A stretch of DNA of 64,000 nucleotides from Takakia lepidozioides (taxonomy: Eukaryota > Plantae > Bryophyta): positions 36,270,001 through 36,334,000 of the forward strand of contig CM060731.1 of NCBI GenBank assembly GCA_030704615.1, in the 5' to 3' direction. The notes beneath the pieces are model-generated. The model did no database searches. It worked only from the letters and a program-made list of their open reading frames with translations, and was not told the DNA's origin. The position numbers and the translations under genes are program-made. Positions within the stretch are counted from its first letter, which is position 1; each line of letters begins with the position of its first letter. Shown one piece after another: positions 2,302-36,779 of the stretch.

Positions 2302-2671
2302 GGAAAAAACGGTTTCTTCTGCACAAGGATTTCAGACTCGAGAGTTAGATGGGAAGATTCAATCCCTCCCTGCTGGCACCTCAGTTACTGCTAGGCGCTC
2401 CCCTGTGGATGCAGATGATGCCGAGGTGAATTGGCAGCATAGATGTTCACTTAGAAAATGAAAATCTAAGGCTCAGTTATCATTTGAGGCTCCTATGATG
2501 AAGGAAGTAGCATGTAGTGCTGTTTTTCTTCTTCAGTTTTGCTGTTGTTCTTGTGATTTGCTGCATGCTCTTTGTTCCTTCCTTATATTGTCTTGCCTTT
2601 CTCCCCCCGCCTCCGCTATAGAGCCATTGGCTTAGAGTGGAACCTCAATCCTCAGCCTGATGGCATTGTAA

Positions 2672-4500: not shown

Positions 4501-4956
4501 GATGAGGAGAAGATCTGGAAGAAATATTTTTCAAACCCAAGTTAATGCAGGGAGAATCAGGGCAGGAAGGTGGTGTTGGTGTTTGCCATGTAATTTATGG
4601 CTAACCGATCTCAGCTCCTTCCGGCAAGGGGGCGGATCTATGCACCTGTTGTTGTAGCTGAAGCAGGTAGGGATGGAGCGCGGGGGCAGATCCATCCCAT
4701 AGAACCAGATTTCAAGCACAACAGTAAAATCAAGGCTTTGTGGATTGATAGCTACAAGAAACGTCCATGGGTGGATGTGCACCTTGGAGCACAGACAGCA
4801 CAGTTGCTTGAATCAGACACTTCAACTGTGGCGACTGCCTTTGTAACAGGAGCAAGGGCGGGAATCCACCAGAACTCTTCTAACTCTTGTCGGGATGTGA
4901 GGACACTGAAAGATGGGGACAGGAAGCTGATATGGTCCTTCGCGTGTTATGAATGA
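4501..4956 (+). pseudogene. Truncated fragment: OSB-type PDF motif fused to a PPR-protein N-terminus
   Basis: DEEKIWKKYFSNPS*CRENQGRK | GT..AG intron 4570-4689 | IHPIEPDFKHNSKIKALWIDSYKKRPWV...QNSSNSCRDVRTL. The last part matches NKNSSGTCEDVRTL at the start of the 36780 PPR. In-frame stop; no PPR array follows. Confidence 0.7.
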
Positions 4957-5267
4957 AATAGTGTTCTTCCATGAACAACATACTCTGCAGCTCCTCCTCA
5001 CTAACATGCAAAACGCTCAAAACTCCTCAGTACCACCAATGTGCCATTGAAGCATATTATGGAACCCAACATGATGCTTCAAATTTTGAGACATTTTTTC
5101 ATCCTCTATCAGGAAACTTGGTAGCTTAAACCTCCCATGGATCTAATCCTTTCAACTTACTCCTGTTGGTCAACAAAGCCCAAAACTGACTTTGTTAGAC
5201 CCCTGCTACTCGTTCCAGAAGTTGCAGCAAGTAACTAGTGCCTAATGTCTTCCGGGTTCCTGTGAAA

Positions 5268-8200: not shown

Positions 8201-8733
8201 CAATTGTTTGCAACGCCTGAGAGGTGTCGCCCGACTGTATCAATGCAACCACCTTGCATTCCAGCGCTTCCACATCTCCAGGTTCCAGTGCCAAAACTTT
8301 CAACGTCGTTAAGGACTACTGCGTTAACGACAAGAATTCCTCCTCCGTCTTTATCCTGTTAAAACAAAAACCCTAATTCGACTTCCAGTCCATTTCGTCC
8401 AATCCAAATTTCAGCAGACACAAATGCAGGAGCTCTCTTCAAGATTCTAGAACACTGTCTGATTCGACTTCCAATATTCCAATACATTCACATATTCCTC
8501 TTCGTACCTCTCTGTAGACACAAATTCAGGAGGATACTTTGGTCTGCAACTTTGACAGTCTGCTTGTAGTCATTGGCCCGCACATGGCGATCCAGCAACG
8601 CGATCAAGTCATCCGAAGAGGGCCCTTCCTTTTCCACCACCTGCGCCTCCCTCTTCACGTCCCCACCCGGTGTCGTGCTCTGTGGCGCAGGTGGCTTGGC
8701 CTTGGCGTTTCCACCTTTGGTCTTCTGCCCCAT
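5268..8733 (-). CDS. SRP72: Signal recognition particle subunit SRP72 (about 6 exons)
   Basis: ATG 8733 (MGQKTKGG), TPR-like exons (ECKVVALIQ; AYCLYRLN..QILYRMG; EIEGELAPISVQLAFVHQ; AVASNNLIA) with GT-AG boundaries. C-terminal RKRKPLYPKGFDP..PDPERWLPKRERSSYR is the SRP72 RNA-binding motif. TAG at 5268-5270. Confidence 0.95.
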
Positions 8734-9254: not shown

Positions 9255-12200
9255 TCACCAATAATCCCCACAAGAACACTCGCCATTCTTGAAGTGATGA
9301 AAGCGGCTGGCATCCCTTGCAACAATTTCTCGACCAACAATGTTGGAGATGAATTTGGTGGCAGTGTGGCAATCTCCGCATACCCGAAGATTCTTTATTA
9401 TGCGGATAGGTGTCCCAGGGGGTGTACTGATGAGCCCAAAAGCAATGGCCAGCTTTTCACTGTGGTGGCAGAGAACTTGTTCCTTGGCCTGCTCATCCAC
9501 ATCATGCAAGACGAAGCGAGTGTCTGGGACATATCCTGCATGCTTCATCTTCCTGGTTAATCTCTCCAACTCGGCGTGAATCTCTTCTATTTGTGGGTGT
9601 GATCTATCTTCCACAGCAAATGTATGCACCCTGTTATGGACCTCTATTGAGGTGTACCCTGGCTTTTTCTCCACACCACTATCCTCCATTTCTTTTGTCA
9701 CATTTGCTACATCATCCCACTTGCCAGCAGCAGCATAGATATTTGAAAGCAGCAGATATACTCCACTATTATGTGGTTCCAACTCAAGGGTACATTCTGC
9801 TGCGCGTTTTGCTAGCTTCACATTGCCATGGATTCTGCAGGCACCAAGCAAGGCCCCCCATACTGGAGCATCTGGTTCAAATGGCATTGTGTTGATCAAT
9901 TCCTCTGCCTCATCCAAGTGTCCGGCACGGCCAAGCAGGTCGACCATACAGGTATAGTGTTTCCGTGTTGGTTGGATGCCATGATCTCGACTCATCGAAC
10001 GGAAGCAGAGACGGCCTTCATCAACTAGGCCCACATGGCTGCATGCGCAGAGGACACAAATAAATGTGACCTCGTCTGGCCTTATTCCTTCCCGCTGCAT
10101 TTGTTCAAATAATTGGAGGGCTTCCAGGCCACGCCCATGCTGGGCATATCCTGTGATCATAGCATTCCAAGAGATCACATTTCTTCCGATGATATTGTCA
10201 AACACTTGCTGTGCATCCCCCAAACTCCCACACTTAGCATACATGTCAACCAGGGCAGTCCCCACACAGACATCGGACTCCATTCCAAATTCGATGACCC
10301 GGGCATGGACCCACCTGCTCTCTTCCAGGACCGCAAGACTGGCGCATGCATTGAGGATGCTCATGAATGTAAGCTTATTAGGTGTCACACATTCCCACTG
10401 CATTTGCTGAAAGAGCTGAAATGCTTCTACACTGTGCCCTTGCTGAGCTAATCCTGCAATCATTGCATTCCATGAGATTACATCTCGCTCAGCCATTTCA
10501 TTGAACTTTTGATATGCATCCACCACGCTCCCACACTTGCAATACATGCTGATAAGGGCATTTCCCACTCCAATATCTGACTCTAATCCAGCTATGATGA
10601 CTTCCTCATGAAGCCACTTGCCCTGTTCAAGAGCTGCTGGGTTGGCACATGCATGAAGGATGCTAATGAAAGTGATATTGTCTGCCTTCATGTCTTCTTG
10701 GTGCATCTGCTGAAAAAGATCAAATGCCTCTTGACCTTGCCCCTGCTGAGCAGATCCTGAAATCATTGCAGTCCAGGAGACCACATCTCGCTTGGGCATT
10801 TTGTCAAATACTTGCCGTGCATCCACAACACTCCCACACTTGCAGTACATGCTGATAAGGGCATTTGCCACTTTGACATTTGACTCAAAGCCGGCATTGA
10901 CAATTTCTGCATGGAGCTGCTTACCATGTTCCAGGGCTATTCGGCCAGAACATGCATTGAGAATGCTCATATAGGTGATCTCGTTGGGCTTCACTCCTTC
11001 TCGTTGCATTCGGTGAAAGAGGTCAAATGCCCTTTCAGCATGCCCTTGTTGAGCTAATCCTGTAACCATAGCATTCCATGAGATCACATCTCGCTTAGGC
11101 ATTTTGCCAAACACTTGGAGTGCATCTACCATTCTCCCGCACTTACAATACATGCTCACAAGGGAAGTTCCTACAAAGATATCTGACTCAAATCCAGCTC
11201 TGATGATCCTCACATGGAGCTGCTTGCCCTGTTCCTGATCCAAGACACATGCATTAAGGATGCTAACAAAAGTAACTTTGTTGGGCTTCACGCCTTGTCG
11301 TTGCATTTGGTGAAAGAGGTTAATTGCCTGTTTTCCATGCCCTTGCTGAGCAGAGCCTGCAATCATCGCGTTCCATGAGACCACATCTTGCTTTGGCATT
11401 TTGTCAAACACTTGGCGGGCATCAATTACACTTCCACACCTGCAATACATGCTGACAAGGGCATTTCCCACTTTGACATCTGATTCCAATCCAGATTTGA
11501 TGATGCCTGTGTGGAGCCACCTGCCCTGTTCCAGAGCTGCTAGACTTGAGCATGCATTGAGGATGCTTATGAAAGTGACCTTGTTTGGCTTAACGTTTTC
11601 TTGTTGCATTTGCTGAAACAGGTCGAATGCCAATTGACCATGATCTTGCTGAGCATATCCAGCAATCATTGCAGTCCATGAGATCACATCATTCTTTGGC
11701 ATTTTGTCAAAGACTTGACGAGCATCCACCGCACTCCCGCACCTGCAATACATACCGACAAGGGCAGTCCCCACTCGGACATCCGTCTCGAATCCAGCTT
11801 TGACGATGCCCCCATGGAGCTGCTTGCCCTGTTCCAAATCCGCTGGGCTGACACACGCCTTGAGAATGCTTATGTAAGTGACATTGTCAGGTTTCGTGCC
11901 TTCTCGTTGCATTTGCCGAAAAAGTTCAAAGGCCTCTGCAACATGCCCTTCCTGAGCATGTCCTGCAATCATCGCAGTCCAAGATATCACGTTCGGTTTC
12001 GGCATTTCCACGAACACTTTGTGCGCATCCACAACACTCCCGCATTTACAATACATGCTGACAAGAGCGGTTTCTAAGACGTCATCTAGCTCGAATCCAC
12101 TCTTAATGATGTGCTCGTGGACCGCCTTGCCAACTGCCAGTTCTTTTGTCCTACCAGACCCCTGCAAGAGATGAGCACATGTCTCGGAATACTCCCGAAA

Positions 12201-12530
12201 GCCTCGTTGCTCCATGTGATCTAAATTGCGCACCGCATCTTTCACTCGTCCCACCTTGACCAATGTGCTCACATACCCACTATTTCCTGAGTCCTGCTTC
12301 CATTGTTCTCCCTCCCGTATATCGCTTCGTCCTCCATTATAAGCAGTGGTGGTAGTGGCCAAGCAAACACACATACCCCTACCCCGACACTGATACCCAC
12401 TAAAGAATCGGGTTTGCTTGTATAAACCAAATTCCAGCTCCCTGCATTGTAAGGAAGAACGCCTTGAGCACAGTATCTCGAGCCCGGAGCATTCTGTGCA
12501 GAGAGCGCTAGCACTTTTCATCATGCGCAC
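9255..12530 (-). CDS. PLS-class PPR protein with E/DYW cytidine-deaminase domain (organellar C-to-U editing factor)
   Basis: Uninterrupted 1091-aa ORF with P-L-S repeats ([28 protein letters not shown]), PG box [21 protein letters not shown], terminal CSCGDYW. Confidence 0.97.
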
Positions 12531-13199
12531 CAGAAAGTCAGATAATGTACCAAAAGACAGCTGCCTTTAGTGCTTCGAGCTGCATCGTTCAAACTCACAA
12601 CTGCCCTCAGGCATCTGCTTGGTAGCGCAACAATCTACACATACCCAATTTGGCACAACATCACCTGCTTAACAATCTGCTCCAGAATCTGATGCAAAGC
12701 AGCAAAAAGGAGATGGTTGCCTTGTTCCCTCCCCAGTGACAATTTGGGATGAGAAGAGTGTTCCGTCTTTGGAACGTGTTCATCCGCAATGTCAGCTGGT
12801 GTCAGACTCGGAGCAGGGACACAGTCGCTGCTCATCGGGTTGCAGCTCCCCTGGGCTTCGATTGGGAGGGCAATGCCATCGCCACAGATTGGTTCCAGTA
12901 GCACCGAGGCCAGGTGCAGAATGCCTGGAGATGTCAAGTTCAGGGTAACAACAACAACCTCCATTTGCAGCAGGGTGTTCGCTTCCGGTGGTATGCATTG
13001 GTCTTGGGAAGTAGTGTGTTGGGGGCATTTGTAATTCGTTTGATTCGTTTGTAATTCGAATGAACCGGTTCCAGGTGGGTGACAATTTCAGTGTGAGATT
13101 ACATAGATGTCTCTCACAGGGACCGTGAAATAGCACCTCGGGTAGAGGCAGGAGAATCAGCATGTCAGTCTCAATACCTTTGGGTGCACAGTAAGTTAG

Positions 13200-14354
13200 C
13201 GGTCCCAATATGGATGTGGCTTGATTTTATTGCAACTGTGAGCTGACGGGTACGGCCCGCGAGGTACAGCCGGAACCCCCGCTCCGGCAGCCTCGTCGGC
13301 GAGCTGGACGCCCCATGTCAAATCATCCCCACCCCTCCGCCCGTTGCCCCGCCCCCGCCCGCCCGCCCGGGACCCTTGACCCCCGCCCCACCGCTGGCCG
13401 CGCGGCGCCCATCTCCCACCCCGATCTCCAGCCACATGGCGGCCCCCCCCCCCGCTGTGGATCCCCTCACGGGTTGATCCCCCTTCCAGTGCCGGAGTGA
13501 TCCCCCACCCCATCTCCAGCCACGTGGCGCTACCCCCCAACAGTCCATCCCCTCCCCATCCATCCAACCTCAATTGAATGGATGACGGCCGGTTGAAGGT
13601 CCCATGACGCGCCCATCGCCACGTGGCGCTCTCCCGAGACGTCGCCGCTCCCCCCACGCGCCTTGATCCCCCCTCCGGACCGGGAGTGATCCCCTAACCC
13701 CAATCGCCCGCCACGTGCGGCTCCCCCGGACCGTCGATCCCCTGCGCATCCATCGGACCTCACAAACAGTGGATGTTGTGTGTCATCCGCCCCTCATCCC
13801 CCGCCATCCTCCCGCTCCCCCCGCCATCGATCCCCTTTTCCAATCGACGGCCCGATCTCCCGACACGTCGCCGGCCCCCCCCCTCCGTTGATCCCCGTCC
13901 AATGCGGTGACTAATCCCCCTCCACCCATCGGACGGCACGTGGCGCTCCCCCCGCCGCCGATCCCCTCTTCCCATCCATGGCGCGATCCCCCGACACGTC
14001 GCCGCTCCCCCCGACCTGGCTTGATCCCCACTCCAGACCCGTAGTGATCCCCCACCCCTAATCGCCCGCCACATGCTCCCCCCGAACCTTCGATCCCCTG
14101 CTCATCCATCCAACCTCAAAACAATGGATGTTTTGGGTCATCCGCCCCTCATCCCCCCGCCATCCTCCCGCGCAGTGGATGGACGACGGCCGGATGAAGG
14201 CCCCATGGCATGCCCACCGCCACGTGGCGCTCCCCCGCCGTCGATCCCCTCATCCCATCGGAGGCGCGATCCCCCGGGCCATCCCCGGCCCCCCCCCCCC
14301 CCCCCCCCCCTCGTTTGATTGATCCCCCGTCCAATTTGGTCACTGGTCCCCTCC
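13200..14354 (+). repeat. Left TIR (~1.15 kb, GC-rich, internally repetitive GATCCCC / CACGTGG modules)
   Basis: Colinear inverted match to 28429-29643 apart from a few indels of ~40 bp. Confidence 0.9.
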
Positions 14355-14968
14355 AGCCATCGGCCGCCACGTGGTGCTCCCCTAAACCGAGGATCCCCTG
14401 CGCATCCATCCAACCTCAAAACTAGGTCATCCGCGGTCCCCCGGCATTCGATCCCATCCTCCCATCCAGGTGGCGATCCCCCGGGCCACTCCCCCCGCCT
14501 CGGTTGATGCCCCGTCCAAACCTGGAATTGATCCCCCTCTCTTCTTCTACCACCACGTGGCGGTCTCCGTAGCCATCGATCCCCTCGTCCCATCCAAGAC
14601 CCGATCCCCCGAGCCACCGCTCCCCCCGCCTCTGGTTGATCCCCCGCCGCCGCCATGCCACGTGTCTTCCCACCCTGACCCCCCCGCGCGTCAACGGTGG
14701 AACAGTTGATCGTTCCCCCCCATGGCGGTCCCCTCTCCGTTGATCCCCCACACCACCTGGACTGATCCCCCATCCTTCCACTCCCCCCCCCCCCAGGAGC
14801 GATCCCCCTTCCACGTGTCAAATGTCAGGGTTGTTTGCACGTGGCTATCATTCTGTTCATCTATGTCGTCCTCCCCCATCCAATGGCCATGCACGTCCCC
14901 ACCATTTTGGTCTGTCACATGAACGGTGTGGATGTATTGAAATTTAGGGTTTCCGGCTGCTCACAAAT

Positions 14969-15912
14969 TTGATCCTCTTTGCGCGCGTGTATGCTGCACT
15001 TGCGCGTGTAGTTTGCTACTCTGTACTGTTTCTGCAGAACGCGTGTGGTCTGCGGATGTGTACTGTTCCTGCAGGGGTGCCGGGCATCATGACTGGATTT
15101 GCACGTCATTCCTTCTATCACAGCTGCGTTGGCACGTTGCAAATCCCCCCGGATGGTTCCTTCAACCACAAGTCGCTTATATGGACTCCAACTATTTCAA
15201 GTGGAGGTGGACATCGTGTATATACGGATGTTGCGGTCATTCCTTGGAGTAGGATCGACGATTTTGTGAGAGGGGAGGAAGAAAGGGCAGAGGCGCCCAC
15301 TCACTTCAACAGAACGGTGCCTAAAAAGGGAAAGCATGAGGAGGGCGAGCTCTTAGCTCCAAGGCCAATAGTTGCTCTGTTGTGATAAAGTCCGCCTTCA
15401 CCTTTGTGGTTTCTGGATGGTCTCTATGTGTTCTTTGTAATGGCATGCTGCTTGTTTGCATTGTTTGCTCTTCTATTGTGTCAAAATGCTATGCTCTCTT
15501 GCTCCGAGTATTCCACTCCGCCGACATACTTCTCATCATTGTTCAGGTTCCATTGTACTTATGGACCTGAGGACAAGCGCACAAATGTAATACCTGTCAA
15601 TAAACATTCTTTGAAGAAAAGGAACGGTAGGAGAGGGTGTGTGCTGGATGCTTCATCGCCTTCTTACAACAACCACAAAGGGCCGAGATGGAAGAAAGTC
15701 GTTCAGGGAGAGTCCATCAAGAGGGGTTGCCTCTGTCAGTTTAGGATTGGACGATGCTACCTGGATCCTTCTCTTGTTGTCATAACATACTACAACAAAA
15801 ACAATGTTGATGGATGTGACAAGGTCTGTCATGGCCACATTGACCCGACTTCAAGTAACACCCGTTTCGCGCACGCACCTCACCTTAGTGAAGAGGTTAA
15901 GATGTGGATAAC
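14969..15912 (+). pseudogene. N-terminal part of a MULE/SWIM-family transposase, interrupted by LTR insertion
   Basis: IPWSRIDDFVRGEE; FHCTYGPED; KRGCLCQFRI...VVITYYNKNNVDGCDKVCHG...APHLSEEVK, resembling the N-terminus of plant MULE-derived SWIM proteins. Similarity ends exactly at the LTR edge (TGTCG, 15913). Confidence 0.7.
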
Positions 15913-16621
15913 TGTCGTGCGCATACATATCGCTACACAACTACATCGCTGTCCAAAACCACACAACACATGTGCACACCACACACTAGTATACCACTAG
16001 TCCACCACTAGTCCAGCCACTAGTCCAACCACTAGGCTACAACTAGTCAGTCACTAGGCTGCCACTATGCTGCCCACTATGGCAGTCACCAGTCCACACA
16101 ATGATAAAGAAAGAAGAAAGAAGACATACAAGCACAAGCTCATGAGAGCTCACAAAGCTGAAGCATAAACTCATGCATATATAACCTCATCACTCAAATA
16201 CAAGTCAAGCCAAGTGCACCCCACGCCATGGGGAATCCACACTACGGCGCCATAGCTAGGCGCGGTGAGGCTCAACTCGAGAAAGATGAGCCTTCCGCGC
16301 TTGCCATGAAGATAACCACTCCAGGGCCTAAATCTGCCTTGACCCCTGGATTGACACTTGGGCCAATCCCAAATGTCAATATGTAAAAGCTAGCTATTTC
16401 CTAGCTAGTTTCACACTAGTGGTAAAATAACTTGACAGCTGTCGTGGGCATACATATCGCTACACAACTACATCGTTGTCCACACAACACATGTGCACAC
16501 CACACACTAGTATACCACTAGTCCACCACTAGTCCAGCCACTAGTCCAACCACTAGGCTACAACTAGTCAGTCACTAGGCTGCCACTATGCTGCCCACTA
16601 TGGCAGTCACTAGTCCACACA
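15913..16621 (-). repeat. 3' LTR of the Ty3/gypsy element, with A-B-A structure
   Basis: On the minus strand it follows a G-rich PPT-like tract (~16625-16633), starts TGTG and ends GACA. 15913-~16099 is repeated at 16440-16621. No matching 5' LTR was seen in the window. Confidence 0.7.
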
Positions 16622-16881
16622 ATCGCCCCCCTAGCTGGTGCTTAGGTCCCTCTAAGTCCAGGTAGCCACAAGATGTGATAGTGACCATAGCCTCACTAAG
16701 TCCTCCACCACTATCCCTACTACACTCAAACTCGATAGATCAAGAGGCCGGGTGCAAGAGTTGCCCCATCGTTAGTCGCCGTCTTGCAACCTGTGAACTT
16801 GAGCTTGGGATCTCATGTATTGACTCCTATGAGCTTGGCCTCCCATGTCTTGTTAGCTGCCTCCAGTCATGTCCACTGCCA

Positions 16882-17040
16882 CTATCCCAAGCAGTGTGGA
16901 CACAACCAATCTCCGTTAGGAACCTTCTCAAGAGGTGGTGTCAAGCATCCCATATGCCAACCCCTTGAGCATCGATCACACACCAGCATGGTGGCTGCCC
17001 TTTGGCAGACCCACAGAGCATGCACCTCAAACCTGCAGGT
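16882..17040 (-). CDS. PHD finger at the C-terminus of the retroelement pol
   Basis: CQRAATMLVCDRCSRGWHMGCLTPPLEKVPNGDWLCPHC: PHD spacing with the CLxPPL..VP.G.W.C signature. Confidence 0.85.
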   Translation of the reverse strand, partial: TCRFEVHALWVCQRAATMLVCDRCSRGWHMGCLTPPLEKVPNGDWLCPHCLG

Positions 17041-18212
17041 ACCACTGCCAGTTTGGGTCAACTCTGCCATCGACATTGGGAAGGTGACATGGCGCACAAT
17101 TACGCACATGGTCATTCCAAGTCATGCCATCCCGACCCTCCAAGATCAGGACCCCTGAGGGCAACACCTCTCGAACCCTCAGAATAACACGCCCTGCAGT
17201 AACATCCAGAGTCGTAGGAGCAGTCTGCTGCAAATAACATAGTCACCAGGGCTAAACCTCCAAACCCCAGGACGATATCCTCCACCACGTATAGTGGCAT
17301 ACCTCAACGTATCATGGTGCTGTGCAATGGCAAGGTTCTCAAAGCCATGGGCATGACTTTCTTGAACAACTCTGCACGCTGATCACATGCACGTACCCAC
17401 ACGTCGGATCGTCAAGGTTAAGGACTTGAGCAGTGTCCCTACGAATGGCTGCAGGCAAATCCGGCTCTCGGCCAAAGAGAAGGAAATATGGTGAGAAGGA
17501 GGCAAGTGATGCTTGTTTGCTGAACCTGTAGCCCATGGCTAACCAAGGAACCTGAAGATCCCAATCTCCTAGGTGTCCCTTCTGCAAGCCATACTTGCGC
17601 AAACCCCTCTTCACCGTCTGAACAACTCTCTCTGCTAAGCCATCGGCCTCAGGATGATCCCGAGAAGTGGTGCGGTGTTCTATCAAGGCTTTATCACACA
17701 AAGCCTGAAACTCCCCCAAAAACTCTCTCCCTTGGTCCGTGAGTACCTCAGCTGGAGCACCAAATCGGCTAAGCACACGATCCAAGAATGCATACGCAGC
17801 CCCCTCACTAGCCTTGTCAGGCAATGGAACCAACTCAATCCACTTGGAGAAGTGCTCCACCATCACCAACACATATCTGTGGTGGCGCATAGTCAGTGGC
17901 AACGGTCCTGCGAAGTCAAGACTCCACCTGTAGCCCAATCCCATGATTGGTAAAGGATGCAACTGTGGTGTAGGGGCGTTGAATGAAAGCACGCACCCTG
18001 TCACACACCATGCACCTAGCCACGAACTGTTGCACCTCTGTATGCATACCACGCCACCAATACTGCCCCTGCAGTAAACTGTGAGTGCGTCGCACTCCAA
18101 AATGCCCCAACTCCTCATGGGCATGCCGCACTAACCGTGCACGCTGTGTGGGGTGAGGCACAATCCTCACCCGACCATCTCCCACACTCGAAGTAGGTGT
18201 ATCCCCTCCCAC
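17027..18212 (-). CDS. Retroelement integrase (frameshifted)
   Basis: HEELGH...WWRGM...CMVC zinc finger; WSLDFAGP...VLTDQGREF...ADGLAERVVQT D-D-E core. Confidence 0.92.
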
Positions 18213-19851
18213 TTGAACCTCTTGGCTCGTTGCAGGATCCGATCTCTCTCCTGGCAGTCACAATGGCTGTCGTGTCTCCCGTGCGGAGGTAGTCCAACAC
18301 AGCCGAATCCTCATGTATATCTCTGGCACCACCTAGCTCATCACTAGCCTCAGGGTCCTCAGACACTCCGTCTACAGTCATCCCTGTTGTAGGTCCAATC
18401 TGACCTCCCGATGCCAAGATACACAAAAATGCAGATGCGTGCCATCCCGACACCATCTCCTCGTCCGTCTCACCATGCCACCGAGCTCCAGTGTCATCCT
18501 GCTGGCTCATGCATGGATTGCGACTCAATCCATCCGCATCCCGATTGACCAAACCCGGTCGATGCACAACCTGAAAGTCATACTCCTGGAGTATAAGTGC
18601 CCACCGTGCAAGCTTCCCCGTAAGCTTGTCTGACTCCATCAACCACTTGAGTGGCTGGTGATCCGTGACAAGGGTGAAAAGATTGCCGTATAGATAGCAC
18701 CTGAAGTGTGCCACGGCCCACACTGCAGCTAAGCACTCTCCCTCATATGAGCTGTACTTAGCCTCTGCAGCGTTGTTCGAGCGGCTAGCGTAAGCCACTA
18801 CGAACTCTCTTCCCTCATCATCCACCTGTGTGAGCACCGCTCCAAGCCCCAGCATGCTCCAATCCGTATGCAGCTGAAAGGGACGCCCCCTGATAGGTCG
18901 TCTCAAGATAGGCGCCGAGGTCAACCTCGCCTTGAGCTCTTGAAAAGCTCGTTCCTGCTCATCTTCCCACTGCCACTCCTGGTCCACCTTGGTCAGCTTG
19001 GTTAGAGCCTTTGCAATGGTACTAAATCCCTTGACAAACCGTCTATAATAGTTTGCCAACCCCATGAAAGCTCGAACTCGGCTCACATCCGTGGGGCGTG
19101 GAATTTGTGCAATGGCCTCTACCTTAGTCTGCTGTACCCCCAATCCTCCAGGATATATCATGTGACCCAGATACTCAATCTGGTTGTGGAAAAACTTGCA
19201 CTTCCCCGGATGCAACTTCAATCCGTGCGCTCTCAAGCGCTCCAATACCACCTGAAGGTGTCTCTCATGCTCCTCCATCGTAACACTAAAGATGATGATG
19301 TCATCTATGTAGCACCGAGCAAAGTCCACCCCTGCTAGAATCCTATCCATGACTCTCTGAAACTCTGCAGGAGCATTCTTAAGCCCAAATGGTAAGAACC
19401 GCCACTGATATAGGCAATCCTTGCCGTGCTCATTGATCCCCCAGAATGCCGTCTTCTGCTTGTCCGCCTCCTTGATTGGCAACTGGTGATATCCGGATCG
19501 TAAATCCAAAGTGCTAAAGGCCTTAGCATGCCCGATGGCATCAAAGATCTCCTCTGGTGTTGGCATGGCATACTTATCGGACTTGGTCTGACGATTTACA
19601 GGCCGGTAATCACCGCACATACGTCTCTCCGTCCAATTGCCATAGACATCCTTCTTGGCTGGCATCACTGTGGCTGAAGCATACTCTCCACCAGAGAGCT
19701 CCACCAAACCTGCCTCCCAGAGATCTTGAGTCCTCATCTGAATCAAAGACCTCTCCATGTCACTGTATCTATAGGGTCTCCGAAAGATTGGCGTGTCAGT
19801 GGCCAACTCAATACGGATCTCTTGACCCTTCAGTGCTCCCAAGTCCTTCAA
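18115..19851 (-). CDS. Reverse transcriptase + RNase H (Ty3/gypsy)
   Basis: RMCGDYRPVN, LDLRSGYHQ, LPFGLKNAP, YIDD, LHTDWS, ECLAAVWA, TDHQPLKW, ADGLSR. Confidence 0.97.
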   Translation of the reverse strand: MKDLGALKGQEIRIELATDTPIFRRPYRYSDMERSLIQMRTQDLWEAGLVELSGGEYASATVMPAKKDVYGNWTERRMCGDYRPVNRQTKSDKYAMPTPEEIFDAIGHAKAFSTLDLRSGYHQLPIKEADKQKTAFWGINEHGKDCLYQWRFLPFGLKNAPAEFQRVMDRILAGVDFARCYIDDIIIFSVTMEEHERHLQVVLERLRAHGLKLHPGKCKFFHNQIEYLGHMIYPGGLGVQQTKVEAIAQIPRPTDVSRVRAFMGLANYYRRFVKGFSTIAKALTKLTKVDQEWQWEDEQERAFQELKARLTSAPILRRPIRGRPFQLHTDWSMLGLGAVLTQVDDEGREFVVAYASRSNNAAEAKYSSYEGECLAAVWAVAHFRCYLYGNLFTLVTDHQPLKWLMESDKLTGKLARWALILQEYDFQVVHRPGLVNRDADGLSRNPCMSQQDDTGARWHGETDEEMVSGWHASAFLCILASGGQIGPTTGMTVDGVSEDPEASDELGGARDIHEDSAVLDYLRTGDTTAIVTARREIGSCNEPRGSSGRGYTYFECGRWSGEDCASPHTACTVSAACP

Positions 19852-20309
19852 ACTGAAGGCAAAGCAATTCTTGTAAGCCCTCAGGAACCGCCGTATACGT
19901 CGTCTCTCTCCTCCGGTGACAATGGGTCCAATGTCAGGCTCCCAATTGTCCTCCGTAACTGCAACCTTAAGTCCAGTGGGCTTAGAGGTAGAGGACGCGT
20001 CCCATGGTTGCTATGCTGCAACCTCTTGAGCAGTACTCCCTGCCTGCTCAGTCAATGACAAGACCTCATCCTGCCCCATCATCTCATCATTGAGGACCTC
20101 CTCAACCCGAGAAGAATCCCCAACCTCATTTATCACAGCCGCCTTGGCTGCCAACTCTCTGAACCTCGAGCACCTCCCACGTGTGCCATGGATGCCTGCA
20201 CCCCGTGGTCCTCACATGCTCGCCCCCACTCACTGCCTGTACCGTCTCGGTAGGCAGAGAGACCATCGAGGGAAGTGTACTCCGCACTCTGCGTTGCTCA
20301 GCCAGAGCC

Positions 20310-21245
20310 AAGCTGATAATCCAGGTCAAGCAATTGAGATCACTTGACGACGTGATGCCTCAGAAAGAGACGACACCGCCGTGGTACCAGTGGTAAAACC
20401 CATTGCCCGCTCATGCTCGTCAGCATTAGGCTCCACTAACTGCTGCAACTGAGCATCCCACAGGAGGCCAGGTCCACTATCCCGGAAAACATGCGATCCT
20501 GGGAAGCTGAGCAGTGTAGGTAATGCTGCTCGTGGTTGACCCACCTTGTTGACCACTGCCAAAGGCGAACGGTCATCGTGTCTCACACGCTGAGACTGCC
20601 TCCCTGTGTCCAGAATGTTATCCACTGTGAGATGTGCTGGCCGCTGCACCCCATCAAATGCACGCTTGAGCAGTGCAGGTGGCATCAAGTTAGTCCACCA
20701 TAGCCGTGGACGATGAGCCCGTGACCCCACTGTAGCTGCATCTAGCAACACTGCTGACCCAAGCCACGACCGGACTTGATGCACACTGGCCATCACCCTG
20801 GCCCGAGAATCGCCCATCAGTGGCACATTCTCCAAGATGTATGCTGGAGATACAGCTTGATGAAGCTGCAAGTGGCGCAAAACCCGCACCATCTCCCAAA
20901 ACAGACCCGACCTCGAGTCTCGCAATCCATTGCCATGCCCGGCTGATGAATGCCCTTGGCAGGGCCAACCTGCCACTACCAGATCAATGGAGCCAACCCG
21001 CTCCAAATCCTGCGCCCCCAGCAACGAAATGTCTGCTGGCAAGGCCTGCTGATATCCACGAATTGCAGACACCGACAACAACTCAGGGTACCGCTGCACC
21101 AACTGAGCAACATGGCGAAGTGAAACGCGTCGTGCAGTCTCATCCCTCTCCACATAAGGTAACGCCGAACTCGTACACCTGCTTGTAACACAGCAGCCAA
21201 TCCGGTGCTGATCCCAGCAAACAAGTCCAGAAGACAAATGCCTTC
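20310..21245 (-). CDS. C5 cytosine DNA methyltransferase domain (DNMT3-like) inside the retroelement polyprotein, frameshifted
   Basis: Motif I LLDLFAGISTG; II YVERD; IV IDLVVAGWPCQ; VI YILENV; VIII AHRPRLWWTN; IX EHERAMGF; X RRQV..(deletion)..DLNCL. Non-permuted order. Frameshift near 21160. Confidence 0.92.
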
Positions 21246-23975
21246 ATCCGGATACTGCCACACAATAGGTGTGGTGTCCAATGGAGACAATTGAGGTGGT
21301 CCTGGTGCAATCCCCACACTCTCCTCCTCTCCTGACGGTACAAAAGCCTCCACCCGGGCTTGTTGCACCCGTCGATCAGTATCCCGCTGCAAATCCTTGC
21401 TCGTGCCCCACAATGGAGTCTGAGCAACCATGGTAGGCAACTCCGCCATACCATACAGGTCATCCTGCTCTCCTGGAGGTGGTACATCCTCTGAATGAGT
21501 ATTGCCCTCAAGCAACTCTCTAGGCCAACTCACTGCCGTTGTGAATGCTGCTAGTGTCGGCATCTTGCCTCGCTGGGCAACCGCAACTCCTCCTATGAAC
21601 GTCACAGGGAGCTGCACACGCCGGCCCTCCCCTGACTGCCATGCAGGCCTATAGGAAGCTGACTCCTCCCAAAAATCCAGGGTGAAGCCCATGGGGTACA
21701 ACACTGCCCCACCAACCAGGACATCGTATGAGACTGCGTCTGTCACAATGGCCTTGGCTCGCATCACTGAGCCATCTATAGGGTGATCCGGCCGTAGTCT
21801 AATAGCCAACTCACGCCGTGTCATGCCCCGAGCCTGCTCCGATCCTCCCAGAGACGTCTGTATCTGGAAAGGACAAGGCTCCATATCCGCCTCCGTGAGG
21901 CCCAAGCCTGCAATAGCAGCTCTGCCCAGCATCATTGGCTGAGCTCCCGAGTCCAACAAGACCCGCAGTGGCCGGTACCTCTTGCTTGCCGGTCCACTCA
22001 AACAGAAAATGCCATCCTGGTTGTCTAACATGACAACTCCAGGTGTCACCATGGCGCGCTCAATGGCTGGCCTAGCTGGCAGCTCCATCAACCTAGCAGC
22101 TGCAGCTTGCCATGGCGCCGCCGTGGCAGTCTTGACCCTCAAATCCGAGGATCCCTCCGGCACTACACCTCCCACTATCTCCGCAGAAGATGAAGTAACC
22201 TCCCCACTCTCACAGAGTGTAGCTACCAGCCTGAACACCTCAGCTGGTTTTACCCCCGGCGTCGCAATCATGGTAGCCGAGAACAATGGAGCCTGGCACA
22301 CAGATGTGGCCGCTCCTAGCAGCACACTAGCTGCCGTAGCCTTGGCGACACTAGGTAGTGGTGCTACCCGTGTAGCTCTCCCCAATGGCATAGTAACCTC
22401 CGCCTCGGTAACAGTCGGGCAAGAACTAGGTGCCATGGATGGCGTCGACACTGTCTCCGCCAATGTGAATGACTGAGGAAGCCTAGCCTGACGGCTTGCC
22501 TCCCCACGCTGTGGATCCAACTCCACCTCTGCACCTCGTGGCTCAGGAACTCGTGCTGCTTCTCGAGTCACGGCTGCAGCAGACTCCACCTGCACTAGTG
22601 GTAGTGCTGCTCCACACATGAATCCCATGCCTCCCATATCTCCTCCCTCAGGAGCAGGAGGTGGACCATCCGGCCTTAGAGCCGGTACCACCTGAGCTGT
22701 AGCCATGGCAGCGAGCCTCTGCTCTAGCTGCTGAAGCTGGTTGGCCATGCCTTGGTCAACACCCTGACCTCCGCATCCTTGGCCACGTTGAGCTTGCCCT
22801 TGGCCTGCACCTCGTGGCTGGCCACCTCGTCCTCTCTGGGCTGCTCCACCTCGCCCCCGGCCACCATTATCCCCTTGGAACTGGCCTGAGCGCAACTCAG
22901 GATGCAAACCATAACACTGGGCCTCTCCATGCCCGTGCTTGCCACAATGCCCACACTGCAACTGTGCAGGCTGTGCATGTGCCGACCCTTTGCCTCCCTC
23001 TGGGCAGTCCTTCTTGACATGGGGTCCTCCACATGTCTAGCACACCACATCCGCCCATTGTTGGCCAGCAAATGAAGGGAGAGACCCCTGCATCTGAGGT
23101 CCTCTCTGCCCTTCCCTGAGCTTCACCTGAGCCCCCTTGTTGCCTTGAGCACGTTGAGGTAGTGGTTGGCTAGGAGCACCACTACCCCGTGGTGTCTCCT
23201 TAGCAAATCCCACCATGACCACTCGTTCCTCCACCATGTTGAGCTCTATCCGCTCTGCCAGCAAAAACACATTTGTTAAGGTGGGTTGGGCCGCTTGTAG
23301 GAGAGTTGCATCCCGCACCCTTCTCCTCAGCTTCTTATCCAATATCCCATACCAGAATTGGACTGCCTGAGCTTCCGTAATCCCTTGGGTTACATTTATC
23401 AAACGCCTCATGCGAATGAAAGCCTCCCTCAAGCTCTCGGTCGGCTTCCGTTGGAACTCTTGCAAGCTCCACAACTTCTCTGTCCTCACCCCTTGGTAGT
23501 TCCCTCTCAACTCTTCGAAGAACTCCACAATAGGGTTGAAGGCAGGCACGGGTGCTAGTGCTGGTGCGGTAGTGGCTTGGGTGGACGTCGTAGCTACTGT
23601 ACCACCAGTCCCACTAGTTCCACTGCTACTTGCTGAAGCTGCCGGTGCAGCGGCAGGTGTAGCCACTGCTCTCGTGGCTCTAGTGCCCCTAGTGATGGAG
23701 ACATAGTCGGGTGACTAGTACATCCTCCACTCCTCGATCTCAACCTCATGCCCCCGCCTGAACTCATGGTAATCATCCATAGGCGGCCCCTCAAGGTGCT
23801 GAAACAGCCCTTTCCATGCCATGAACGGCGTAAATAGTTGTGTATTGCGCATTTGCTGCAAATCACACCAACTATCAAACTCTTGGATAAAATCATCCAA
23901 CTCGATGGTGCCCACCGCCCCAGAGTACCTTCGTGGCCCCTTGGTAGCTCCATACATCTCCTCCATTGTGTCCCA
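21246..23975 (-). CDS. Gag, zinc knuckles and aspartic protease of the retroelement (disrupted)
   Basis: Gag-like ELDDFIQEFDSWC and LQEFQRKPTESLREAFIRM; CCHC knuckle CGHCGKHGHGEAQC; protease VLLDSGA...YDVLVG. In frame with DNMT motif I in ORF 20976-22961. Confidence 0.85.
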
Positions 23976-24153
23976 CAGGGGGGGACCAGGGTCACACATG
24001 GATGCATGCTTCGTAGAAGACCGATCTGGGGGAGCAGACAAAACCTCGGGAGTAGAGGTGGGGGCTGCCAGGGCTAAAGGGAGACCAGAAAGGGAGGGAG
24101 CAGTGATACACACTAAAGCAGTACCAGATGAGGGGGGAGCACAAAAAGAAAAC

Positions 24154-27100
24154 TCATGCGAGGAGGGAGATGAGTCCGATGGGATAGCATGCGGTGATAG
24201 CCACTTCTGGGGGAGCAGATAATGGAAGAAGTGCAGAGGCGGGGGGATCACATGGTTGGGGAGGAGTGGCAGAGAGGGCGGCAGACACAGGGGGGGGGGG
24301 GGCGGAGAGGAGGGTAGCACTTGGTGCGGGTTCACAGATTTGAAGGGGAGCAGCGGCGGGGAGATCACATGATGGGGCAGCAGAGACAGAGAGGGTATCA
24401 GAGAGGAGGGCCGCTCCTTGGGAGCGATCAGAGATAGGAAGGGGAGAAGATGCGGGGGCAGCAGAGACAGCGAGGGCAACGGAATATTCCCTTGGGGAGT
24501 CTAAAAGAAGACTGTGAGGCAGAATAGTATGAGAGGGGATGGGATTGACATCAACTTCCGCAATGGGTGTGTAGAAACCTGCCGTCGGAGATTCCACTTG
24601 AAAAGTCTCTGTATGAGGCGCTTGAAGGTCTTCAACCTGTGAGGGTGTTGGCGACGCAATCTGCGATGCATGGTGGGACAACTGTGATGAATTGAAGGCG
24701 TCCACGTCAATGTGGGAAAGGTGAGGGGCATATGGTGACACTCGTCGGTTGTATAATTCATGTCTTCTCGCCAACAACACCTTGTTTGCTCGTAAGACCT
24801 CCTCCATGGCATTTTGAACTCCAACATCAGATGCCTCAGCCTCACCTATCAGAGAGACAAACGCTTGTATTTAGCTTTGACCCCGTGATCCCCTGATCCC
24901 CCGATCCCCGACTGTAAAGTCTGCTCCCCCATTTATCTATTCCAATTCTGATCTTCACAATGACAGACTGTTGGAGAGGCAAAGCATGCACTTACTCAAA
25001 AGATGCACGTAGGGTCCCAAATCAATGTGCTCCCGCCTAAACAATAGATCCTCCCAGGCCCGCACTGCACGTCGTATCCCTTTGGCATCGTTGCCCTTGC
25101 ACCACAAAACTTGGAAGTGGGCGGTTTCTGTTGCCGCAAATTCATGAAACGCTCGGGCACGCACCATGTGAAGAAATGCTCGGCAGGAGTCGACGATCTG
25201 CATTTTGTCATGCATTGTACCATATCTAAGCTGACCCTCTGCCAGGAGCACTTCTTTCAACATAGTCTCCTGATTCTGAAAATTCCCAAACGTCCGCCAA
25301 CCTCCATGCAAGAAGAGTCCAAATCCATGGTAGAGCAGTTTGTGAGCAGTCTGCGGTGCGAAAAGCATCATGATATGACTGGGGCAGATGTCGTGTCTTA
25401 AATCGGCCAAAGGATATAAGTGTGAAACAGGGGGTCGAGGGTCCATGGTAGAAAAAACTTTGGAGGGGAACAGGGACCGAAGGCAGTCGGGCTGGACATT
25501 GACGTTTCAACCAGGCAGCTCTTAGGAGAGGGAATTCAGGAAGCAGACGTCGAACGTCCTGCTCCTCCAGCAATAGTTCAACAATATCAAACTGGAGATC
25601 TACAGATGAGGGGGGAGCAGAAGAGGAGGGAGTAGCAGAGGGGGAGCAGCAGAGGGGGGAACGGTGCAAGGGGGACATGACGTGGGGGGATCTGATATGG
25701 GGCGAGCAGACCTGTTTGCAGCAGAGGCGGGGGGGGGGGGGGGGGGGGACAGGGGTAGACGATGAAAGGGGAGTAGAGACGGGCATGATGGGGGGAACAA
25801 CATTCACCGGACAGGAGGGTGTTAAGATAGGAGTACTCATCTTTCCCACAAGGTAGCTCTCAAAATCTTCCAACTCCAGCCCAATGGATAGAGCACAGGG
25901 AATGCCGTCTTTGCAGGTGCTCCATGCCCGCACTGATTTTCGCACAGCCTCAATTTCTCCCGCGGAAGCATTGATCTGCAGGCAAAAATGCAACACAGAA
26001 TGAGCATTTACAAACCGGGGACAATCCTGGGAAACTATTGGGGGGAGCAGATGGCCGGACACTCAAAATGAGATTGGGGGGGTGAAGCAAACGTGTTCTT
26101 GTAGAAGCCATCTTCTCCAGTGGCGTTCAGCCCTCTCCACTCCCTTTGCAAAACCTCCACTCCATGCAAAACCCACAAATGCATCCCAGAATCTTTCATC
26201 ATTCTGGTCAGTAAAATTGGAAGGGAGAAGTCCATGTTGCAGGAGTATAAATGTTCTAGTAGGGGTGATCGGGTGTGGTGTGTCGTGGTCGATGTCCATG
26301 GCCCCATCCCCTGCAAGAGGCCCCGAGCTCCCAGGCTGCTCCCTCTCGTCCTGATGAGTAGTCTGCTCCCCCTCGTCGTCCTGTGTAGTCCGCTCCCCCA
26401 TATCTGCGTGCCTTCGCTGTTTTCCGGATTGGCCCCCTTGACTTTGAGACGGATCCCCCCCATGTTCGATCCCCCCCATTTCTGCTGCTGGCTGCTCACG
26501 GCTGTAGGGATACTTTTTCTTTGGCTTTCTACTCGAAGTGACAGCGAGTTCAGGCCGCACTTTGGCTTGTCTCTCACGGGCGGAGGGTAAAGTAGTAACA
26601 ATCTTAACCTTTTTTGCCTCCTTCTTTGGTTTGGTGCACTCAGAATCGGTGTCGGACCCACTACGGCTACTCCTCTTGTGAGGGGCAACCACTTGTGACG
26701 GTGCAGGCGCATCAGGCTTCCGTTTTCTTGCTCCTTTGGGCTGCTGCTGCCAATCAGTAGGGGACACGTCGTCTCCTGGTACGTGCCACACTTCGGGGTT
26801 TGTACACCCTCTCAACCTCTCCACAAAATTACTAACCTGCTTCAGGAACTCGGCAGTGGGCCAGGGTTTTAGTGGCAACTGAACCTCGTCCCAACCATCC
26901 ACCATGTTCAACCAAGGACAACCCTCCCCATCAATGACATGCCTATTCAACCTAACCTTATCCTTCATGGGCCGCCCACAAAACTTGCACTTATAGGGAT
27001 TCCTTTGTTTCGCGCCATCACGAACTCTGAGGTCGCCTCTGCCTCCACTATCATCTCCTCCCACTCAGTTGGCGTATACCAGAAAGGAACCTCGTCCTCT

Positions 27101-28428: not shown

Positions 28429-29643
28429 GGAGGGGGACCAGTGACCAAATTGGACGGGGATCAAACGAGGGGGGGGGACGACCGGCGATGGCCCGGGGGA
28501 TTGGCGGCTCCGATGGGATGAGGGGATCGACGGTGGGGGGAGCACCACGTGGTGGTGGGCGTGCCATGGGGCCTTCATCCGGCCGTCGTCCATCCACTGC
28601 GCGGGAGGATGGCGGGGGGATGAGGGCGGATGACCCAAAACATCCATTGTTTTGAGGTTGGATGGATGAGCAGGGGATCGACGGTTCGGGGGAGCAGCAC
28701 GTGGCGGGCGATTAGGGGTGGGGGATCATTGCGGGTCCGGAGTGGGGATCAAGCCAGGTCGGGGGGAGCGGCGACGTGTCGGGGGATCGCGCCATGGATG
28801 GGAAGAGGGGATCGGCGGCAGGGGGAGCGCCACGTGCCGTCCGATGGGTGGAGGGGGATTAGTCACCGCATTGGACAGGGATCAACGGAGGGGGGGGGCC
28901 GGCGACGTGTCGGGAGATCGGGCCGTCGATGGGAAGAGGGGATCGACGGCGGGGGGAGCGGCAGGATGGCGGGGCGGATGACACACAACATCCACTGTTT
29001 GTGAGGTCCGATGGATGCGCAGGGGATCGAAGGTCCGGGGGAGCCGCACGTGGCGGGCGATTGGGGTTGGGGGATCACTCCCGGTCGGGAGGGGGGATCA
29101 AGGCGCGTTGGGGGGAGTGGCGACGTCTCGGGGGAGCGCGCCGTGGATGGGAGGAGGGGATCGACGGCGGCAGGACGCCACGTGGCGATGGGCGCGTCAT
29201 GGGACCTTCAACCGGCCGTCATCCATTCAATTGAGGTTGGATGGATGGGGGGGGATCGACGGTTCGGGGTAGCGCCACGTGGCTGGAGATGGGGTTGGGG
29301 GATCACTCCGGCACTGGAAGGGGGATCAACCCAGTGAGGGGATCCATGGCGGGGGCTGCCGCGTGGCTGGAGATCGGGGGTGGGAGATGGGCGCCGCGCG
29401 GCCAGCGGTGGGCGGGGGTCAGGGGTCCCGGGCGGGCGGGCGGGCACGGGGGGTTCAGGGGGGCGCGGGGAGCAGCGGGCGGGCAGGGGCGGGGTAACGG
29501 GCGGAGGGGTGGGGATGATTTGACATGGGGCGTCCAGCTCGCTGACGAGGCTGCGGGAGCGGGGGTTCCGGCTGTACCTCGCGGGCCGTACCCGTCAGCT
29601 CACAGGCTTGCAATAAAATCAAGCCACATCCATATTGGGACTG
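28429..29643 (-). repeat. Right TIR (~1.2 kb)
   Basis: Reverse complement of 13200-14354. Confidence 0.9.
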
Positions 29644-30099
29644 GTAAATTAGAAGAGACTGCAATCTCGGGATCACAGTAGAGTGCTTTGCATATTTTAG
29701 ATCGATTTGAATTAGAGTCTTCACATTTTGTTCAATACTCAACTGGAGTGAGAGGAGTCCGTATGCCCTGTCTCTTTGCCCTGTCTCTTACTTCGGTTTG
29801 CGACCTCCGTGAGCTGCTCTGCTCCGGTACCATTTCCCCACCTTGGATGTGGTCTATCCTCAAGTTCTGGGGCTGGTAATTGTGGGCTTCTTTAGAGGGC
29901 TCTCTTTTCTCCAGTGGCAAGGCAAGATGTGCATCCACTAGATGAAGAGGAGGTAACAATGATTAGTCTCTCCTCCCCCTGCAGACATGGACGTTACAGG
30001 AGACTACAGACATGTACAGCTGATTGTAATTGGAGATTTGCAGTTGAGCAACCAATCTTCATTGTTAATGTACCAATGTATTTGGCACAGATCTACTGC

Positions 30100-33961: not shown

Positions 33962-34442
33962 TGAGCCTCGGTGCTTTGAGCTGCATCCTTGAAATCACAT
34001 GCCTCCGAGGTCTGTTTGCGATTTTGAAAAGAGTAATTGGGTAGAGGCCCTCTGTCTGTTCCCGTGAACTGTCGGAGTGGATACCGTGTCATATTCACGC
34101 TTACACGACTTCCATGTCTGTCGATTGCTGTTGTGATGTCAAGCTTTGGGCTCATCTATTGCACATTCTGGTCATCACATTCTCTCTCTATATGGATATT
34201 TCCTCGTAAAGAACTGGAGGGTGCACCAGCACATCAAACGCCTTGGCATGGGTCGGGGAAACCTTGCCGGCTGGTTGGAGAAGAGTAGTGCATACACGAT
34301 TGCAACCTCGGCGGAAAGCGTGCCTGTCCTATCCACATCTTCTGGAGGGATCCCGGGGTCCCCAAGGCGAGCCCGCTCGCAAGCCTGGCCGCGAGCTGGA
34401 AGCCTTTTCGCGAACATGTAGCAAATTTCCAAAAAGCCCACA

Positions 34443-36210: not shown

Positions 36211-36779
36211 GGAGGGGGATACTTCCAGTATGACTGTCCCTCCTCTTTGATGCAGACCAGTTCTGATGTTTCTCTGTTAGTTGCATTGGATGTTCTGCTA
36301 AGTACTTCTAATTTAACTCTCATACAGTGAGCCATTCATTCCATATTGTAAGGTACAGAGTTCTTACTTTTTTGAATTAAGGTGTAGCGAGTTCTCACTT
36401 TCTCCAGAAATGGAGCATGATAGTTGTGTTGGGAGGTGCATACCAGAAAGTCTTATACAAGGGCGACTTGTACCCAGATTTTTTGGATCTAGCTTCTTTG
36501 TTGTGGAGGTGAACGCACTGTCAGAAGTGATTCTTAGTACTCCATGCAAAACGGGACAGTAATGGTACTGCAGCTGATGTGAGTTGGTATTTTACAAGGA
36601 CATAGCTCCATGTTGTGATGTGGAAGGGTAACCAAAACACACCCTGTTATTATGTAGCAAGGGAGCATGTCCTTATAAAGAGATCTTCTTTGAGGCGGAC
36701 AAAGATGTGTATATGTTTTTATATATTCTGGGAGTTTGAGTGTCCAGGTTTGTAACTTTAAGAGTTTGGATTATGCAGG

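Follow-up and report, generated by a model that had tools for sequence, protein, structure and literature searches.

Since 2018, when de Mendoza et al. (PMC5890265) described a retrotransposon-borne DNMT3 in Klebsormidium nitens, KnitGypsy-Dnmt3 or Gypsy-DNMT3, it has been a puzzle why retrotransposons should encode an enzyme that usually acts to silence them; the sole Gypsy-borne enzyme tested so far was inactive in yeast. The question is raised again by a 64,000-nucleotide stretch of the Takakia lepidozioides genome (assembly GCA_030704615.1, contig CM060731.1, positions 36,270,001 to 36,334,000, forward strand), which we call the window. On its minus strand lies a Ty3/gypsy retrotransposon with a DNMT3-like cytosine-C5 methyltransferase (MTase) between protease and reverse transcriptase (RT) and a PHD finger after integrase. 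Elements of the Gypsy-DNMT3 kind are already known, and the bryophyte members are a variant with a feature of their own, a conserved in-frame stop codon between MTase and RT.

A DNMT3-like methyltransferase inside a Ty3/gypsy coding region

Translation of positions 15800-24600 and Pfam searches gave, 5' to 3' on the minus strand, the order gag, protease, MTase, RT, RNase H, integrase, and PHD finger. The Gag-PR-RT-RH-INT order typical of Ty3/gypsy elements is thus present with its catalytic motifs, in agreement with the identity given in an earlier, sequence-only reading of this locus (the original prediction). The element and its parts, all on the minus strand, are as follows.

15913..23977: retrotransposon copy, delimited by a rise in contig depth; 3' end ...CACGACA at 15913, 5' end lost
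23040..23966: capsid-like region of gag; Retrotrans_gag E value 0.067, nearly co-linear with the N-terminus of Marchantia Mp_4g09160
22890..23045: two zinc-knuckle-like Cys/His motifs (nucleocapsid), read in translation and matched in relatives
21640..22040: aspartyl protease, LLDSGA at 21959; Asp_protease_2 E value 0.025 here and 2e-4 in the intact relative L017
20260..21260: DNMT3-like C5 MTase with motifs I, IV, VI, VIII, and IX; DNA_methylase PF00145 E value 3e-13
20005..20013: amber stop TAG CAA CCA (TAG at 20011-20013), a predicted readthrough signal; homologous stop plus CAR in relatives
19100..19830: RT, YIDD at 19311; RVT_1 E value 3e-33
18510..18885: RNase H; RT_RNaseH E value 6e-36
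17030..18180: integrase with H2C2 zinc finger, D-D-E core, and GPY/F-like tail; Integrase_H2C2 4e-17, rve 3e-14
16885..17030: PHD finger at the integrase C-terminus; PHD E value 2e-10, frameshift near 16997 in the window copy

The protease (0.025) and gag (0.067) matches of the window copy fall under the Pfam cut-off. The original prediction placed the element at 16882..23975, an interval that holds all the domains it named, but the element reaches 15913 and its 5' end is lost at about 23977. Its account of the domains was sound as far as it went; missing from it were the stop conserved ahead of RT, the split repeats at the ends, the dead state of this copy, and a different domain order in chlorophytes, all of which are described below.

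The MTase motifs lie in linear (unpermuted) order at 21227 (DLFAG), 20970 (GWPCQG), 20838 (ILENV), 20721 (RAHRPR), and 20418 (EHERAMG), so that FAG, PCQ, ENV, and RxR follow one another between protease and RT as had been claimed; the domain is intronless and sits inside the retrotransposon coding region. Motif I shares the frame of the protease in a 686-amino-acid open stretch (20976-23036), which bears out that part of the claim of a common frame. Motifs IV, VI, VIII, and IX are in another frame, past a frameshift near 21152, and a deletion near 20341 has removed the core of motif X. Two premature TAG stops, 23715-23717 and 23037-23039, break gag, and the integrase-PHD region contains several frameshifts. 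The indels of the window copy at 16997, 17049, 17235, 17340, 17404, 17986, 18178, and 20156 are absent from many of the aligned contigs. The window copy is dead.

It belongs, however decayed, to a family that is abundant in the host. When four public runs were aligned on 14500-26000, contig depth rose about 100- to over 1000-fold between ~15912 and 23977 relative to the flanks, a depth that, as the depth tool cautions, does not equal copy number. Because other copies diverge from the window sequence beyond 23977, we place the loss of this copy's 5' end there. Across host copies in the same four runs, depth over the MTase equals depth over RT; the MTase therefore belongs to an abundant host retrotransposon family, and the concern that other copies might lack it is dispelled.

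Sequence searches returned 168 MTase relatives of comparable length and a further 63 that are longer, the named ones coming from Marchantia polymorpha, M. paleacea, Calypogeia fissa, Riccia sorocarpa, Sphagnum troendelagicum, S. fallax, and Klebsormidium nitens. M. polymorpha has many annotated copies that are 59-75% identical to the window MTase, and K. nitens KFL_009030040 (P0168) is 44% identical, so that the suspected link to the elements of de Mendoza et al. is one of direct homology. No fern, lycophyte, or seed-plant names were found among the MTase matches listed. Three PPR-E-DYW genes in the window identify the host as a land plant, as originally proposed, and liverworts and Sphagnum are among the named relatives. 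Bacterial contamination was ruled out, since the named relatives sit on plant contigs of 8-30 Mb.

Fold and selection of the methyltransferase

Among solved sequences, the closest to the MTase is DNMT3A, then DNMT3B/C, with M.HhaI and M.HaeIII behind. A structure predicted for the natural MTase domain of relative L002 had a mean predicted local distance difference test score (pLDDT) of 88.9, and the top 30 Foldseek matches listed for it were all DNMT3A/B/C (best E value, 1.4e-19). The predicted fold is thus closest to DNMT3A/B, in keeping with the DNMT3-like label of the original prediction.

Seventy-six MTase domains (61 proteins, 14 loci, and the window) were aligned. The ENV Glu and the motif VIII Trp are present in all 76, the second Arg of RxR in 74, and the catalytic Cys in 72. 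Ratios of nonsynonymous to synonymous substitution (dN/dS) were calculated by the Nei-Gojobori method for 21 pairs, 2 of which were saturated. In the three pairs among L017, L018, and L021, the least decayed relatives, dN/dS was 0.10-0.12 for the MTase and 0.13-0.15 for the protease; seven between-lineage pairs gave 0.07-0.17 with dS near saturation. The MTase is under purifying selection, and the neutral drift that would have undercut the original prediction is not what is seen.

A conserved stop between methyltransferase and reverse transcriptase

Thirty-three loci were fetched (denoted by L numbers), of which 21 span both MTase and RT. All 21 have a stop codon followed by CAR at the MTase-RT boundary (14 TAG, 7 TAA); five near-identical pairs are among them, and 17 belong to one subfamily. 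The MTase does not share one open frame with RT, because the stop intervenes. The full CAR-YYA hexamer of the tobacco mosaic virus (TMV) type follows it in the window and L002 (CAA CCA), in L017 and L018 (CAG TTA), and in L021 (CAA TCA), lineages whose synonymous sites are nearly saturated. At this base composition the hexamer is expected by chance with a frequency of 0.0012 per site, and neither of the two decay stops in the window gag has it. CAR is retained between lineages even though their flanking sequences cannot be aligned. Within the host, no variant of at least 8% occurs at 20005-20036 among the 27 rows listed, while 20003, 20004, 20037, and 20042 are variable. That the TAG arose as a decay mutation was ruled out.

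L017, an undamaged relative, has a single frame from 973 to 8227 interrupted by one stop, TAG CAG TTA, at the MTase-RT boundary; Pfam finds only protease and MTase in its first frame and RT, RNase H, integrase, and PHD beyond the stop. L018, L021, and L002 likewise have one stop only, with the same frame on both sides. (The stops of L017, L018, and L021 were taken from frame reading; MAFFT shifted them by 6 bases at the junction.) Among annotated proteins, two from Marchantia and one from Calypogeia terminate 92-94 residues past motif X, and 24 of 28 checked end 42-196 residues past it, the other four being unmatched by the pattern. Ten more distant proteins, including those of Klebsormidium and Closterium, continue from MTase into RT; some of these are gene models. 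In the window and L017, no AUG lies between the stop and the RT domain. RNA structure 3' of the stop was not significant in any of five sequences (z = -0.8 to -1.6). One contig in run X12, presumed to be RNA, crosses the stop and retains it, which says nothing on expression; run X8 (organism B) had no contig on the 341-base stretch at the stop, which is no proof of absence.

In TMV, CAR-YYA by itself drives readthrough, and murine leukemia virus (MuLV) reads through its stop at 5% (PMC2194720). On the strength of its context and retention, the stop between MTase and RT is probably read through by ribosomes.

The PHD finger

A PHD finger follows integrase, as predicted, not only in the window but also in L006, L007, L012, L013, L015, L017, L021, and most long algal relatives. 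The closest solved matches to that of L017 are CHD4, PHF12, PHF21A, KAT6A, ATXR5, DPF3, and KDM5 PHD1, which are mostly readers of unmethylated histone H3 lysine 4 (H3K4me0). The L017 finger also lacks the cage Trp two residues before the His. By eye, the window and four relatives (five fingers) read G-W-H. Since the stop falls between MTase and PHD finger, the two would be separate proteins; the PHD finger is therefore more likely to guide integration than methylation.

Split direct repeats

The element does not end in two plain long terminal repeats (LTRs), one at each end. The window instead contains the following on the minus strand.

16439..16623: split direct repeat B1, 95% identical to B2; ends in the junction CACGACA-GC-TGTCA
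16103..16436: split direct repeat A2, between B1 and B2, begins TGTCA; size and place as A2 of L015
15913..16102: split direct repeat B2, the 3' end of the element, 95% identical to B1

B1 and B2 align over 191 columns with a 336-base spacer, and A1, the 5' partner of A2, is absent from this copy, leaving B1-A2-B2. The full plan, A1...B1-A2-B2, is seen in L015: A1 (1676-2017), coding region, B1 (10238-10350), A2 (10350-10691), and B2 (10693-10805). L015 starts with TGTCA, ends with CGACA, and has AAGG on both flanks (n = 1, the sole locus with both ends); all eight 5' ends located begin TGTCA, in seven different flanks. TG...CA ends and a target-site duplication in the 4- to 6-bp range are thus found in relatives, the window copy having lost its 5' end. 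Insertion by integrase is favored by these ends, the single 4-bp duplication, and the DDE core. A DIRS or tyrosine-recombinase identity was ruled out: the DDE integrase is present, and no recombinase family matched in Pfam searches of the window and L017. The same searches found no chromodomain in either.

The B1/A2 junction reads CA(C/T)GACA-NN-TGTCA in four sequences (window 16429-16445, L015, L017, and L021) and resembles an end-to-end element junction carried internally. In L015, 22 bases right after A1 (2017-2038) are complementary to 1837-1858 inside A1, an arrangement also seen in L014 and L028; this may be a self-primer like that of Tf1/Tcn1, found in one subfamily only. The split repeats suggest that LTR-finding pipelines overlook these elements. 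They also point to an unusual reverse-transcription route for an integrase element, for which the internal junction and the possible self-primer are leads.

Relatives in green algae and the history of the domain

A profile search (E values up to 1e-30) gave 546 clusters at 50% identity; 20 were looked up, and those named were Closterium, Scenedesmus, Haematococcus, Chlamydomonas eustigma, and Cymbomonas. The order RT-RH-MTase-INT-PHD was found in 31 of 137 new representatives, most other multidomain ones being parts of it, and its named members are chlorophytes. In the proteins P0359, P0358, P0420, and P0396 (Scenedesmus, Haematococcus, C. eustigma, and Cymbomonas, respectively), a related MTase stands immediately ahead of integrase, an order that we did not find described in the available literature.

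In an RT tree, elements of the PR-MTase-RT plan, with Klebsormidium and Closterium, form one clade of 13 rows (Shimodaira-Hasegawa-like approximate likelihood ratio test [SH-aLRT] support of 97), in which the window groups with Marchantia, L002, L003, L017, and L021 (SH-aLRT, 99). The tree was a quick one of 29 hand-chosen rows with no non-DNMT gypsy outgroup, and in a smaller tree of 18 rows Klebsormidium falls across the midpoint root. A quick MTase tree divides along much the same line as the RT tree. The simplest reading of these trees would be one old capture of the MTase, with the domain later relocated within the element.

Comparison with known systems

KnitGypsy-Dnmt3 shares with the window family the Gypsy domain set, a DNMT3-like domain that has neither introns nor permuted motifs and is flanked by protease and RT, purifying selection, and the RT clade, and the combination of DIRS-like repeats with Gypsy domains fits the legend of Fig. 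4c in the same paper (PMC5890265). The window family differs in its land-plant host and high copy number. Its MTase closes the Gag-protease frame at the stop, whereas KnitGypsy-Dnmt3 is placed in the Pol open reading frame (ORF) (PMC5890265) and the Klebsormidium gene model continues from MTase into RT. The PHD finger follows integrase in the window family; the Klebsormidium protein is partial and ends before that place. PHD fingers, embryophytes, and Marchantia are not mentioned in the main text, and the species table has no Marchantia or Sphagnum row (PMC5890265). The main text of the REXdb paper mentions neither Marchantia nor Klebsormidium nor methyltransferases.

Gypsy elements with a PHD finger in the polyprotein and a proposed insertion bias are known from Chlamydomonas, namely REM1 and Gypsy-7a_cRei, and Gypsy-7a insertions are intergenic 2.6 times more often than chance (PMC9940879, PMC6673714). 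Unlike the window family, Gypsy-7a has no methyltransferase domain listed in the figure legend seen. Two in-register frames parted by one stop are found in SIRE1, MuLV, and Tca2, and the stop of the window family carries the hexamer of the TMV type (PMC2194720). Those elements have the stop at gag/pol or pol/env, while that of the window family comes after protease and MTase and so places an epigenetic enzyme on the side of the abundant product. A literature search found nothing that joins CARYYA readthrough with retrotransposons.

Host-type PpDNMT3a/b likewise have a catalytic domain of the DNMT3 type with its motifs in linear order, which sets them apart from DRM, but are multiexonic and carry DUF3444, while the window MTase is intronless, lacks DUF3444, and lies in a retrotransposon frame (Yaari et al. 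2019, PMC6453930). SymbioDIRS-Dnmt3 is also a retrotransposon-borne C5 methyltransferase, but DIRS elements use a tyrosine recombinase (PMC5890265). The EpiLTRs likewise pair such an enzyme with a chromatin reader; their DNMTs, reported to be sister to DNMT4, are accompanied by DAM and a chromodomain (bioRxiv 10.64898/2026.05.21.726589). That preprint and PMC12344493 refer to DNMT-carrying elements in "streptophytes," so land-plant members may already be known to specialists. In the literature available, we found no description of bryophyte members or of the stop or PHD finger in them; the supplements of PMC5890265, PMC12344493, and the 2026 preprint may include land-plant members.

Proposed function and alternatives

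We propose a readthrough-controlled, capsid-level MTase that marks cDNA, with integration guided by the PHD finger, and give this chain as a whole a probability of roughly 0.55. Gag-protease-MTase, the first frame, would be the main product, and RT, RNase H, integrase, and PHD finger would arise by low-frequency readthrough of the stop; if the stop is leaky in this way, the MTase would be made at capsid level. The protease would free the MTase inside the particle, where it would methylate new cDNA ahead of integration, so that the new copy would arrive marked like host chromatin. The DDE integrase would carry out integration, and the PHD finger would read unmethylated H3K4 and steer it away from active promoters.

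Several observations weigh against this proposal. At the stop, 17 of the 21 loci are a single subfamily with CAA-CCC, one base from the CAR-YYA consensus; the stop is TAA in 7 of 21; an AUG is present between stop and RT in 5 of 7 sequences checked; and the in-frame gag-pol stop of Tca2 shows that a TMV-like context is not required (PMC2194720). MTase dN/dS is 0.43-0.74 in nine pairs of decayed copies from one subfamily (RT, 0.3-1.1 in the same pairs), and among L017, L018, and L021 the MTase values exceed those of RT (0.04-0.07); they are also above that of integrase (0.025). The PHD finger is assigned to the predicted H3K4me0-type class by sequence likeness alone. The KnitGypsy-Dnmt3 domain gave no methylation in yeast, a result that its authors called inconclusive; in the same assay human DNMT3B also failed and SymbioDIRS-Dnmt3 was active (PMC5890265).

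With the same anatomy and readthrough, the MTase could instead act mainly in the nucleus and in trans, on host chromatin or on the copies that the family has already integrated, either to restrain the family itself or to interfere with silencing by the host, rather than on packaged cDNA. Self-restraint was raised by de Mendoza et al. (PMC5890265), and a capsid-level output far above the need of one cDNA per particle would suit such action, as would the chlorophyte relatives, in which the MTase sits beside integrase at Pol level, so that low amounts suffice there. We nevertheless consider nuclear action unlikely: the first frame adds no targeting domain to the MTase (protease and MTase families only in L017), and Gag fusion would package the enzyme, as is established for retroelements. 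A different route to the second frame, by Ogre-like splicing over the stop or by means of a separate transcript or start codon, with the stop context inherited, is suggested by two Marchantia gene models (P0126 and P0128) that bridge MTase to RT across the stop, by the AUG soon after the stop in five of seven sequences, and by the Tca2 precedent (PMC2194720). The joins in the two models fall at differing places, however, an AUG before RT is lacking in the window and L017, and neither the single stop in one shared frame of L017, L018, L021, and L002 nor the CAR kept between non-aligning flanks fits this route, which makes it quite improbable.

The failure of KnitGypsy-Dnmt3 to methylate DNA de novo in yeast (PMC5890265) would also fit an MTase kept for a noncatalytic or non-DNA role, such as nucleic acid binding, action on RNA or RNA:DNA hybrids, or sequestration of host factors. 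Such a role is very unlikely given that the S-adenosylmethionine-binding and catalytic motifs are near-invariant over 76 domains and that human DNMT3B failed likewise in an assay where SymbioDIRS-Dnmt3 worked (PMC5890265). That the window copy alone captured a host DNMT3, now decaying neutrally, would account for its broken MTase. The MTase occupies the same position in hundreds of relatives among algae, liverworts, and mosses, the domain is under purifying selection, and it lacks the introns and DUF3444 of host DNMT3 (PMC6453930); a one-off capture is rejected.

Other features of the window

An inverted repeat pair of 1.25 kb, 87% identical (13192-14351 and 28433-29651), flanks the retrotransposon, which thus appears nested in a DNA element with long terminal inverted repeats, presumably Mutator-like, between two PPR genes. 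Pfam assigns E and DYW domains to three PPR genes, all of them intronless.

9255-12566, minus strand: PPR-E-DYW gene
31253-33994, minus strand: PPR-E-DYW gene
36762-39395, plus strand: PPR-E-DYW gene

Exons of an SRP72 gene lie at 5268-7795 (minus strand) and are 44-65% identical to 120 relatives among the matches listed; in a search that covered full-length proteins of up to 613 amino acids, the best named matches of an SRP72 exon came from ferns (51% and 49%), followed by flowering plants (48%). A 244-amino-acid open stretch at 60600-61334 (plus strand) has a D-I-P-D motif and a late DLICGTG motif; an Atlas feature search led to N6/N4 amino-methyltransferase clusters (PF01555, best 0.93, 162/256 shared), and Pfam and PDB sequence searches gave nothing relevant. 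Lying among repeat-like ORFs, it may be a second DNA methyltransferase borne by a transposable element, of the N4-methylcytosine/N6-methyladenine kind. Two long ORFs at 50927-54837 (minus strand; 348 and 860 amino acids) contain a SWIM-like Cys/His motif and have the look of transposases, with no Pfam match at an E value of 0.01. Arrays of 53-nucleotide and 33-nucleotide units at 54948-56650 and 62346-63145 have a common near-palindromic core, GGAAATGCGGCACCGCATTTCC, and are probably subterminal repeats of a DNA transposon.

Implications

The conserved stop predicts an MTase at capsid level, with RT and integrase at a few percent. For annotation, retrotransposon MTase copies inflate DNMT3 counts in bryophytes. 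More tentatively, and with the odds against it, a green-plant-wide integrase lineage with split repeats may have carried one DNMT3 and one H3K4me0-type PHD finger since before the chlorophyte/streptophyte split; the MTase would have moved from the Pol to the Gag side, and a leaky stop in land plants would have raised it to capsid level, so that particles would deliver premethylated cDNA. Active families might then be the source of a de novo methyltransferase that has gone unrecognized in liverworts and mosses, among them Marchantia polymorpha, whose copies bring the question of retrotransposon-borne DNMTs into a genetic model.

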